IMG/VR virus record: IMGVR_UViG_3300021961_000021
Length of the DNA stretch: 64,000 bases
From: a virus
Strand: one strand, 5' to 3'
Both the position numbers and the translations under genes were made by a program. The notes under the pieces are model-generated. The model searched no databases. It saw only the letters and a list, made by a program, of their open reading frames with translations, and was not told the origin of the DNA. Positions 2,787-7,640 of the stretch are shown in pieces. The first letter of the stretch is position 1. Each line of letters begins with the position of its first letter.

Positions 2787-3069
2787 TCGGAATCATCCTA
2801 ATCTTTCTCGGATTATAGACACAGTTCTCTCCTAGTTCGCACAATTTAATATAATATTCAGCTTTGACCTGGGAGAGATCCATATATTGTTTGAGATCTC
2901 TCCACTCATTACCTGTCTGAACTTGAAGTCTGTATCGTATCCGTGTCACATTAGGAAACCATCTCAATTGATATTTATGCGACGGATACCTCTTCAAATC
3001 TAGAAAGATAATTGTAAGCGTAGTGTGTACGAGCACCGTGGATACCCCATCCAATCCAAGAATAGGCAT
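2776..3069 (-). CDS. Hypothetical protein; true start probably near 2950-2965
   Basis: ORF track; late-promoter-like ATAAATA at 2978-2972 implies a later start. Confidence 0.5.
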   Translation of the reverse strand: MPILGLDGVSTVLVHTTLTIIFLDLKRYPSHKYQLRWFPNVTRIRYRLQVQTGNEWRDLKQYMDLSQVKAEYYIKLCELGENCVYNPRKIRMIPNEQ

Positions 3070-3595
3070 AATTCATATACCTTTCGATGGATTTTCCAGG
3101 AACACGCATCGCTGATTCAATTCGCTTCCACTGAGTTTCATTAGTTAAGTAACGAAGCTGGGTATGAAGTGATGAAGGATCACCACCATAACGGTTAGCG
3201 AAAGAACCAAGACCAATGTACCTGTTAGTTGAGGTCCATTGAATCAAACCATAACCACCATATCTACAAGCATTATACGAGACTCTACTACCACCCTCAC
3301 AAATGTTTGCGTGGAAGTTAGACTCCTGTTTAATGTTGCCCATAATGGCAGCCAACGAGTTTCGATCTCGGATCCCAACTTCTTGGAAATACGCGAGAGC
3401 GAGACTTTCATTGTGGTTACACCCTTTACAAATTAGTCTTGTCTCTTTGGGTTCTGGAGCAACCTCTCTGGTCGCTGTCTTCTCAGGTACTGATGGAGGT
3501 GGACCATCCATTTTGTAATTAGAGAATGGCAGTGTTGCCGTACTGGTTGTAACCGTTACCGCAAGGGGCAGGGCTACTGAAAGGAATTGTTGCAC
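2975..3595 (-). CDS. Putative cell-wall hydrolase (phage tail lysozyme / Phage_lysozyme2-like) with N-terminal signal-like segment
   Basis: AAIMGNIKQESNF catalytic-Glu motif and GYGLIQWT motif; GTG start. Confidence 0.75.
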   Translation of the reverse strand: MQQFLSVALPLAVTVTTSTATLPFSNYKMDGPPPSVPEKTATREVAPEPKETRLICKGCNHNESLALAYFQEVGIRDRNSLAAIMGNIKQESNFHANICEGGSRVSYNACRYGGYGLIQWTSTNRYIGLGSFANRYGGDPSSLHTQLRYLTNETQWKRIESAMRVPGKSIERYMNYAYSWIGWGIHGARTHYAYNYLSRFEEVSVA

Positions 3596-3691: not shown

Positions 3692-3722
3692 GTAAAAACC
3701 CGCCACATTGTGACGGGTTTAC
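3692..3722 (-). terminator. Intrinsic terminator after lysozyme
   Basis: AAACCCGTCAC-AAT-GTGGCGGGTTT-TT. Confidence 0.65.
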
Positions 3723-3747: not shown

Positions 3748-4251
3748 TCAACCCTTCTTCCACGCTTCGCCTTCTGCCTTACGGCGGCGAGCAAGACCTG
3801 CTTCTACGTTGGAACCAGGGTTGCGGTACATATAAAGAGCATCAGGAACTAAGTCCCATTCCTTATTTTTAAGTCGCTTAGTAATGGTATTAAAATCACC
3901 ACTACCGTAGAACCCAGCACCCAAATTATAAGCGAAAGAAAGAAGAGCACCTCTCTTACCATCACTCATTTCATTCCAATGAGGAATCTTTTGAAGTGCA
4001 GGAATGAATTGCTTCTTGCACTGATCAATGAGAAGTTCATCTGCTTCTGCTTGAGTGAGAGTATCTCCCATTTGGAATGCAGAACCATCTTTCTTACGGG
4101 TTGAACCCCAACCAATAGTGATTGGAAGTCCACCACTCAGAGGATCGGGATATGCATTTAAATGACATCCTTCAAATTCTTTGATCAATTTGATTCCCAT
4201 CATAGGAACCTCACCACTTGCGGCAGCAGGAGCACTACTGCCGCTGGTTAC
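3748..4251 (-). CDS. GH24 (T4-lysozyme-like) muramidase frame; probably reached by -1 frameshift from 4248..4481, with alternative starts at 4281 or 4203
   Basis: IKEFEGCHLNAYPDP...ITIGWGST, ALLSFAYNLG, GLARRRKAE motifs. Confidence 0.9.
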   Translation of the reverse strand, partial: VTSGSSAPAAASGEVPMMGIKLIKEFEGCHLNAYPDPLSGGLPITIGWGSTRKKDGSAFQMGDTLTQAEADELLIDQCKKQFIPALQKIPHWNEMSDGKRGALLSFAYNLGAGFYGSGDFNTITKRLKNKEWDLVPDALYMYRNPGSNVEAGLARRRKAEGEAWKKG

Positions 4252-4257
4252 TTTCCC
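4220..4257 (-). promoter_or_regulatory. Putative -1 programmed ribosomal frameshift signal
   Basis: G GGA AAG heptamer (4257-4251) in frame just before TAA; 6-nt spacer; 10-bp stem GCGGCAGTAG/CTGCTGCCGC with 5-nt loop (4244-4220). Confidence 0.7.
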
Positions 4258-4481
4258 AGAGGTTTGCCACAATGAGGACATACATCTCCCGTTGGAGCGG
4301 CAGCAGCAGGTGCTGCAGGTGCTGCTGCACCTTTCTTACCTCTGTAGATTTCTGCCCAATCAATGTTATCTTCCAGATACTTGATAGGGAGATTATCTTC
4401 TAACCATTGTACTGCTTTGACGTGGTTAGGGTTCTTCTCATCATAGAATTGAAAGAAGTTGTGTAAATCGATACGTGCCAT
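4248..4481 (-). CDS. 77-aa N-terminal module (DLHNFF...WLEDNLP) with Ala/Pro linker and CPHC tail
   Basis: GAGGAG RBS before ATG 4481; paralogous to the N-terminus of the adjacent C39 peptidase. Confidence 0.8.
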   Translation of the reverse strand: MARIDLHNFFQFYDEKNPNHVKAVQWLEDNLPIKYLEDNIDWAEIYRGKKGAAAPAAPAAAAPTGDVCPHCGKPLGK

Positions 4482-4492
4482 TTTAGTTCTCC

Positions 4493-5164
4493 TCAATCAA
4501 AGATGCGACCCCAACCATCGTTGCCACCTGGGCACCAACGATGCTTAAGAACTGCTTTTGTGTAAACGGTTTTCTTACCGTTCTCAACAGGACCACTGTA
4601 GTTATCATTCAATGAACCATACGGATCATTAACGTAATAACCTTTACCATCAGGTGTCTTACCGATAACAACACACATATGACCACCTGTAGGGTTGGTC
4701 AGAGAACCACGATGTAGGATACCAATAACAACTGGTTTACCTGCATCAAGACTCTTGTCGATATCGGAGAAAGACAAGTTGTAACTAAAATGGGACTTGA
4801 CACCATACGCTTGCAGAACCTTAGTCTGTACAGCGTGGTCAGTTGTGTCACCAATTTCAAATACTTTCTTGACATATTCATCATCGCCTTTAATAGATCC
4901 AGGCTTGAGGAATGCAAGACACATTGCACAGGACGAACTGTTACAAGTTCTATGTGCGTCTCTATAGTTATCTACTTGATTGAAGTAGGGCACATCCAGC
5001 ACTGCTGGTGTGGGAGGTTTGGTACGGAAGATAGAAACCCATTCGGTTTCAGAATCATCCATAAACGCTTCTGGAAGATTATCCTCCAACCACTGCACTG
5101 CGGCAACGTGATTGGGGTTCTTCTCATCATAATACTTAAAAAAGTTATGAAGATCTAAAGTCAT
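4493..5164 (-). CDS. C39-like (papain-fold) peptidase, putative peptidoglycan hydrolase, with the shared N-terminal module
   Basis: LDVPYFNQ...TCNSSSCAM (Gln/Cys), GGHMCVVIG (His), VNDPYG (Asp); late promoter CATAAATA at 5197-5190. Confidence 0.8.
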   Translation of the reverse strand: MTLDLHNFFKYYDEKNPNHVAAVQWLEDNLPEAFMDDSETEWVSIFRTKPPTPAVLDVPYFNQVDNYRDAHRTCNSSSCAMCLAFLKPGSIKGDDEYVKKVFEIGDTTDHAVQTKVLQAYGVKSHFSYNLSFSDIDKSLDAGKPVVIGILHRGSLTNPTGGHMCVVIGKTPDGKGYYVNDPYGSLNDNYSGPVENGKKTVYTKAVLKHRWCPGGNDGWGRIFD

Positions 5165-5202
5165 CGTATGCCGTGATGAGAGGCAAATGTATTTATGTAA
5201 AT

Positions 5203-5226
5203 AAAAAATGCCCCTTTCGGGGCATC
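5203..5226 (-). terminator. Intrinsic terminator after hli
   Basis: ATGCCCC-GAAA-GGGGCAT then T-run. Confidence 0.8.
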
Positions 5227-7515: not shown

Positions 7516-7561
7516 AAGAATACCTCACTTCTATAGACTAGACGTATATCCCCTAAGGGAA

Positions 7562-7634
7562 CGGGTCAGGTAGGGATCGAACCTACGACCGACTGCTTAG
7601 AAGGCAGTTGCTCTATCCACTGAGCTACTGACCC
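7562..7634 (-). tRNA. tRNA-Arg (anticodon UCU), no encoded CCA
   Basis: GGGTCAG acceptor, TAGCTCAGTGGATAGAGC D arm, ACTGC-CTTCTAA-GCAGT anticodon arm, GGTTCGATCC T loop; 73 nt. Confidence 0.96.
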
Positions 7635-7640
7635 AAGTAG

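Follow-up and report, generated by a model that had tools for sequence, protein, structure and literature searches.

A conserved and very probably programmed −1 ribosomal frameshift site within a modular endolysin gene of uncultured cyanomyoviruses

Programmed −1 ribosomal frameshifting (PRF) is encountered in tailed phages chiefly in the genes for tail assembly chaperones, and less often in capsid and replication genes. Here, we describe a −1 frameshift site within a modular cyanomyovirus endolysin gene, identified in a 64,000-nucleotide stretch of viral DNA (IMG/VR record IMGVR_UViG_3300021961_000021; “the window” hereafter denotes this entire stretch), and we consider it very probable from sequence comparison that the site is programmed, conserved, and under selection. 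Two recoding sites serve as the closest models for its layout. In the dnaX gene of Escherichia coli, a slippery heptamer, a spacer of ~6 nt, and a stem-loop are accompanied by an upstream Shine-Dalgarno (SD)-like stimulator. To our knowledge, the G/GT site of phage lambda needs no such downstream structure. At the lambda site ~4% of ribosomes shift, and the stop codon lies directly after the heptamer (PMC3296357); this heptamer, G_GGA_AAG, is among the highly shift-prone heptamers in E. coli (PMC5009743).

Endolysins that yield two polypeptides from one gene offer a further point of comparison. In CTP1L, Lys170, LysIME-EF1, and phi2638A, all from phages of Gram-positive hosts, an in-frame internal start supplies, alongside the full-length enzyme, an extra non-catalytic module of the binding type that corresponds to the C-terminal part (PMC9430671, PMC4777826, PMC7098653, PMC12203907). 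Phages of Gram-negative hosts were left aside in PMC9430671 because most endolysins there are single globular domains, and frameshifting goes unmentioned. For the Alteromonas virus vB_AspP-H4/4, a genome announcement proposed that a slippery sequence and a −1 shift carry ribosomes from an endolysin ORF (open reading frame) into the next ORF (genes 39/40; PMC5658483); however, the downstream part in that case is an internal virion protein, the proposal is one annotation that neither comparison nor experiment backs, and the virus is an unrelated podovirus. The PRFect tool names “lysins” among genes reported to hold frameshifts, with citation of a 1994 lactococcal paper on “two overlapping genes”. 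Our full-text literature searches pairing endolysins or cyanophages with frameshifting returned no description of an endolysin assembled by a conserved PRF. The elements that define the site in the window, all on the minus strand, are as follows.

4248..4481, minus: 0-frame ORF of 77 aa plus stop, with an N-module (residues 1-50), Ala/Pro linker 1 (51-67), and a CPHCGKPLGK tail (68-77)
4266..4280, minus: CPHCG knuckle
4251..4257, minus: slippery heptamer G GGA AAG (X XXY YYZ), in phase with the 0 frame
4248..4250, minus: 0-frame stop TAA abutting the heptamer (TAA or TAG in relatives)
4220..4244, minus: stimulatory-type hairpin of 10 bp, including one G-U pair, with a 5-nt loop (by folding)
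3748..4251, minus: −1-frame continuation (167 codons and a stop) that comprises linker 2 (VTSGSSAPAAASGEVP) and then a GH24 lysozyme
4201..4215, minus: GGTGAGG and then ATG ATG, where translation of a free lysozyme of 151 aa might begin internally
3751..4203, minus: GH24 phage lysozyme domain including the KEFEGC motif (PF00959, E 5.8e-23)

The 77-aa ORF opens with ATG at 4481-4479 and closes with CTG GGA AAG TAA, and at the heptamer both tRNAs could re-pair in the −1 frame (GGA to GGG, AAG to AAA). A spacer of 6 nt (4250-4245) leads to the hairpin, whose arms GCGGCAGTAG (4244-4235) and CTGCTGCCGC (4229-4220) enclose the loop TGCTC (4234-4230). Read from G4251, the −1 frame begins V T S G S S A P A A A S G E V P M M G I K, passes through an Ala/Pro/Ser/Gly linker 2, and runs to TGA at 3750-3748, for a predicted fusion of 77 + 167 = 244 aa; the lysozyme match to PF00959 reaches 82 bits against a gathering cut-off of 22.3 and covers profile positions 1-125 of 125. 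A first-pass annotation of this DNA, made from its letters alone, had read the locus as an endolysin assembled by a lambda-type −1 frameshift. Its coordinates for the ORF (4481-4248), the heptamer (4257-4251), and the 10-bp stem with loop TGCTC six nt downstream (4244-4220) all hold, as do the 244-aa fusion into a complete GH24 lysozyme and the alternative starts that it listed at ATG 4281 (GGAG upstream; in the −1 frame) and ATG 4203 (GAGG upstream, part of GGTGAGG), and its equation of GGGAAAG with the lambda gpG/gpGT slippery site agrees with the published account (PMC3296357).

On the reading favoured here, ribosomes translating the 77-aa ORF would meet G GGA AAG with the hairpin positioned at the mRNA entrance. 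The majority would terminate at the adjacent TAA and release the N-module with its CPHCGKPLGK tail, whereas a minority would slip back by one base, read through linker 2 into the GH24 lysozyme, and yield a 244-aa product composed of module, CxxC, linker, and lysozyme. The outcome would be free module and full-length enzyme at a genetically fixed ratio, and the two products might hetero-oligomerize, as in the known two-polypeptide endolysins, or compete for binding sites; the first-pass annotation suggested that the free module could be a competitor or inhibitor, or a metal/redox-responsive lysis timer. The comparisons set out below establish how the site is laid out, that it is conserved, and that coding continues across it; that slipping occurs and that the two products act together are inferred.

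Compared with lambda gpG/gpGT, the heptamer is identical, the 0-frame stop is likewise adjacent, and the predicted products follow the same scheme, the lambda site giving a major short product and a minor, C-terminally extended fusion (PMC3296357, PMC5009743). The proteins, however, are unrelated: the gene in the window encodes an endolysin in a lysis cassette rather than a tail chaperone, the site carries a strong hairpin at 5-6 nt, and the fused part is an enzyme domain that is joined in frame in relatives; only the recoding signal is shared. With E. coli dnaX, which produces tau and gamma, the site has in common an X XXA AAG heptamer, a spacer of ~6 nt, a stable stem-loop, and two products at a fixed ratio, although the shifted product is the short one in dnaX and the long one here (PMC5009743). 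As for the two-polypeptide endolysins, the products here would share their start and differ at the C-terminus by a change of frame, and the window endolysin thus appears to resemble that class in outcome without being a member by mechanism. At the window site no upstream SD-like stimulator comparable to that of dnaX is evident, and a search of Rfam gave no match at the frameshift site. The recoding signal itself is canonical; what is new is that it would join a targeting-type module to a lysozyme and that it is conserved across an uncultured cyanomyovirus clade.

Relatives that share the split arrangement provide evidence for this reading. Among 80 IMG/VR loci fetched with the 77-aa protein as query, 22 are split as in the window; in every case the downstream part lies in the −1 frame and the short ORF closes with CPHCGK[PS]LGK-stop. 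This ending was first seen in splits found by protein similarity, and on that motif we then built pattern scans of IMG/VR and a metagenome collection with a back-translated CPHCGKxLGK in which every codon was free. The scans returned 63 distinct contexts, comprising 60 endolysin contexts and three unrelated chance matches, and all 60 endolysin contexts read [CT]TG GGA AAG TA[AG], with the stop invariably abutting the heptamer. Elsewhere in this ten-codon stretch, Gly is encoded by all four of its codons (GGC 18, GGT 29, GGA 12, GGG 4), and the other Lys codon is AAA in 53/63. Fitch parsimony on a FastTree phylogeny of flanking coding sequence (total length ~8 substitutions per site) assigned 0, 0, and 0 changes to the third positions of the heptamer against 4-20 to neighbouring third positions; in the flanks, third positions with no change numbered 4 of 183. 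No conserved pairing partner for the heptamer was found, its predicted partners varying by context (mid in 28, upstream in 16, start region in 14), and RNA structure thus does not account for the synonymous constraint.

Coding continuity across the junction is also consistent with this reading. The distance from the 0-frame stop to KEFEG is 62, 65, 68, 71, 74, 77, or 80 nt, always 2 mod 3, and indels in this would-be intergenic stretch are therefore always multiples of three; in none of the 60 contexts does a −1-frame stop intervene between the 0-frame stop and the lysozyme. Nine of the 23 loci have a −1-frame stop four codons 5' of the 0-frame stop, which confines the overlap to ACC/TCT-GGG-AAA-G and thus leaves the heptamer as the only shift site. 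Additionally, an ATG ahead of the catalytic motif is lacking in six distinct contexts, and one locus (L170) retains an intact lysozyme frame of 170 codons with no ATG, GTG, or TTG before KEFEG. Since the upstream −1 frame of this locus is closed after four codons (an overlap of four codons), a shift at the heptamer is the sole visible route to active enzyme. In many relatives ATG 4281 is cut off from the lysozyme by a −1-frame stop, and ATG 4203 is missing in six distinct contexts; together with L170, these losses mean that alternative starts cannot explain expression in general. A free lysozyme initiated at ATG 4203, with GGTGAGG upstream, is nevertheless a possible third product in the window.

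The hairpin adds further support. It is present in 53/53 distinct downstream segments, with a core stem of 9-15 bp that begins 5-6 nt after the heptamer (−14 to −25 kcal/mol). Over a fixed length of 40 nt, the mean minimum free energy (MFE) is −19.5 kcal/mol, as opposed to −10.7 kcal/mol for linker 1 of the same genes, and two in-frame CxxCG variants give about −10 kcal/mol over 52 nt. In the window, the 68-nt segment folds with an MFE of −32.9 kcal/mol, compared with −20.6 +/- 3 for shuffles (z = −4.1), and the MFE fold (4195-4262) includes, outside the hairpin, a helix between the heptamer region and the lysozyme ATG region that relatives do not conserve. Two stem families (GCGGCAG.../...CTGCCGC and GGGCAGC.../...GCTGCCC) occupy one position and encode different peptides. 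Pair counts were taken from a covariance-model alignment for the first family and from a same-length subgroup, and a MAFFT alignment of all junctions was dropped, its 3' arms being misaligned. In the first family, 99.7% of cells are paired, two pairs show double-sided changes, and the observed covariation was reached by 1/500 shuffles; the second displays double changes of G:C to A:U and C:G to U:A, with covariation reached by 2/500 shuffles. Compensatory double-sided changes thus occur at four stem pairs in the two families together.

Other relatives carry the same parts in one reading frame. In the Synechococcus phages DSL-LC02 and DSL-LC03, the same module and the same lysozyme form a single ORF of 222-223 aa with an Ala/Pro linker between them, and in-frame fusions of 220-224 aa occur in ~57/80 IMG/VR loci. 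Three loci (L044, L060, L061) are likewise in frame but longer, at 241-244 aa, through an added CSKCG[KR]G segment together with another linker. Since such fused relatives exist, the long polypeptide is real and viable in this endolysin family, and the fusion may be ancestral or have arisen in parallel. A 232-aa form (P0061) reads ...GDVCPH followed directly by SPVAAQSQTSGDD..., that is, the knuckle is joined straight to the −1-frame linker of the split forms. P0061 has the appearance of a split form that an in-frame deletion has repaired, with loss of the second Cys together with the heptamer, the stop, and the hairpin's 5' arm. The first-pass annotation had set an alignment of homologous loci as the test of its frameshift reading; many of the homologues are fused in frame, the split ones all keep GGGAAAG, the stop, and a compensated hairpin, and the comparison thereby supports that reading.

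Several observations weigh against the frameshift interpretation or limit its reach. Every split example is metagenomic: cultured phages in GenBank have no DNA match to the junction, and tblastn found no split form among them. In a tree built from the flanks of 86 alleles, the split ones are scattered among the fused ones, which requires eight or more state changes, and it follows that a fusion without free module is also viable and that a need for two products is unproven; this interspersal suggests either that the linker segment moves by recombination among co-occurring cyanophages or that the two forms interconvert repeatedly. As regards the hairpin, covariation is of moderate strength, since most stem variation consists of one-sided wobble and the stem is triplet-periodic: it consists of GCN/NGC triplets, such that in one family a 3-nt slide still pairs 92% of cells. 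The linkers of fused genes (L017-L084), for which no frameshift is needed, fold too, with a mean of −15.7 kcal/mol for the best 40-nt window. Linkers of Ala/Pro/Gly/Ser readily form hairpins of their own accord, and the hairpin accordingly supports the frameshift reading without deciding it. Its probable origin lies in linker codons, and folding in the fused linkers may reflect mere complementarity of GCN codons or some function, for instance in pausing or in internal initiation at the conserved Met. Finally, the window and most relatives place ATG ATG with a GGTGA-type SD sequence before the lysozyme, from which a free lysozyme could arise without a shift.

This last observation also speaks for an explanation in which the locus holds two ordinary genes, separated by an old frame-breaking insertion, with the lysozyme starting at ATG 4203 or 4281 and the heptamer put to no meaningful use. 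ATG ATG after GGTGAGG, as in the window, is found in ~60/66 distinct contexts, and related phages do encode stand-alone GH24 lysozymes (e.g. S-SRM01, 155 aa). Yet two independent genes leave unexplained why the heptamer shows no synonymous change while nearby positions show 4-20, why the stop is invariably adjacent and the hairpin fixed in position, and why indels preserve frame in a supposedly non-coding spacer; moreover, several lineages lack the ATG, and L170 lacks any canonical start. We accordingly regard the two-gene explanation as improbable. Another explanation, for which we see very little chance, gives the stop and the hairpin a role in translational coupling or attenuation, in that ribosomes finishing the 77-aa ORF would melt a structure hiding the lysozyme start without shifting frame. 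The window's MFE fold, in which the CCUCUGGGAA region pairs with the UUCCUAUGAUGG start region around the hairpin, is in keeping with such coupling, but the outer helix is not conserved and the heptamer partners differ among contexts, six contexts have no ATG to unmask, and the frame-preserving indels go unaccounted for.

An indel introduced by sequencing or assembly, or a pseudogene that arose recently in this one phage, is scarcely conceivable. The bare frame break is all that speaks for it, whereas the same −1 layout, with an insert of 54-80 nt, recurs across 60 distinct contexts drawn from many samples and projects, each with an intact lysozyme frame, and the flank tree spans ~8 substitutions per site; because these contexts derive from many metagenomes, a sequencing indel is excluded. 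Transcriptional slippage was likewise rejected, the runs of three G and three A residues being too short by established knowledge. A candidate second type of split (P0125), on a contig with the lysozyme in several pieces, was set aside as probably an error-rich assembly. In a related contig (L186:1501-2216), the lysozyme gene falls into three called pieces, which probably reflect an error-rich assembly or a pseudogene rather than a second type of recoding.

If the programmed frameshift is real, the principle of two polypeptides from one lysis gene would extend to phages of Gram-negative-type hosts by another recoding route. The fused genes, the fused genes with a CxxC insert, the frameshifted genes, and the deletion revertant form a natural comparison series in which to ask what the free module does. 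There is also a practical consequence, in that annotation pipelines split the gene, and relatives are called “hypothetical protein” plus “lysozyme”.

The N-module itself has a wider distribution:

4332..4481, minus: helical N-module of ~50 aa, without a Pfam family and cell-wall-binding-domain-like by its partners

A whole-library HMMER search found it in only 47 representative clusters, partnered with GH24, Peptidase_C39_2, and Peptidase_M15_3 domains. In one protein (P0154) the module is internal, between a lysozyme and an M15 domain, and two others (P0138, P0166) each have two module-matching stretches, which suggests tandem copies. Partners of this kind are typical of domains that target the cell wall, and together with the tandem copies they suggest such a role for the N-module. 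With a more diverse alignment, AlphaFold2 predicted residues 1-50 as a small helical domain (pLDDT 75-90) followed by a disordered tail, a model of moderate confidence; the prediction for a natural in-frame 244-aa homologue, based on a shallow alignment, reached pLDDT 41 and was not used. The module has no Pfam match, a Foldseek search against the PDB gave no match, and a VIA-wide search gave a best Z of 2.0, results that do not in themselves mark the fold as new. Searching the Atlas with the module retrieved mostly viral rows, headed by its own lysozyme and C39 clusters, and the bacterial rows were weak and unrelated. We thus have an uncharacterised module of ~50 aa that is common to three classes of peptidoglycan hydrolase in cyanophages. 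In the window, two neighbouring peptidoglycan hydrolases both begin with this module (4332-4481 and 5015-5164, minus strand), with the pattern D-L-H-N-F-F-x-x-Y-D-E-K-N-P-N-H...W...Y-R. The profile phrog_3617, 405 positions in length, covers the module, the C39 peptidase, and the lysozyme, and it would seem from this that a single polypeptide holds all three parts in some phages.

The knuckle that precedes the heptamer differs between forms, being CPHCG in split forms and CSKCG[KR]G in the in-frame variants with the insert, with two cysteines only per CxxCG. A Zn or disulfide bridge between two chains through CxxC is an attractive idea. A more elaborate proposal, which we put forward as speculation and rather doubt, is that the endolysin is heteromeric and takes its stoichiometry from the frameshift. 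Abundant CPHC module would be linked to rare full-length enzyme, and possibly to the C39 peptidase too, by a disulfide or a Zn(Cys)4 “hook” between the molecules, such that the strength or timing of lysis would depend on metal or redox conditions in the infected cyanobacterium.

As for the genome setting, genes for psbA, ferredoxin, hli, transaldolase, and peroxiredoxin, together with the nearest GenBank records, point to a T4-like cyanomyovirus as the source. Those records are DSL-LC02 and DSL-LC03 (Kyanoviridae), at ~79% nucleotide identity, and no closer cultured phage was found. The carriers of the frameshift appear to be a group of uncultured freshwater- or estuarine-type cyanophages that would build their lysozyme by a −1 slip. 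Around the site, the minus-strand lysis cassette runs from a terminator-like hairpin and CATAAATA through a module-C39 gene, the 77-aa ORF, and the GH24 lysozyme to a second terminator-like hairpin.

5207..5226, minus: terminator-like hairpin that closes the upstream hli-like unit, just 5' of the lysis cassette (terminator scan and sequence)
5190..5197, minus: CATAAATA, T4-type late promoter-like (TATAAATA), 26 nt 5' of the C39 gene start (sequence)
4493..5164, minus: gene of 223 aa for an N-module (~50 aa) plus a Peptidase_C39_2-type domain, the first cassette enzyme (PF13529, E 6.2e-15)
3694..3717, minus: intrinsic-terminator-like hairpin CCCGTCAC-AAT-GTGGCGGG plus T5, at the cassette end (read in the sequence; not listed by the terminator scan)

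The octamer at 5190..5197 is presumably a promoter, as known T4-like late promoters would suggest. The N-module of the C39 gene product (4493..5164) is 64% identical to that of the frameshift gene, and the protein matches the endolysin family phrog_10051. The 64-kb window encodes no tRNA-Lys or tRNA-Gly that might bear on slippage; its sole tRNA gene is a tRNA-Arg (anticodon TCT; 7561-7635, minus strand). The next gene downstream of the cassette (2975-3595, minus strand) encodes a 206-aa protein with a signal-peptide-like N-terminus and a match to Phage_lysozyme2 (PF18013), without an N-module, which would be a third cell-wall enzyme near the cassette.

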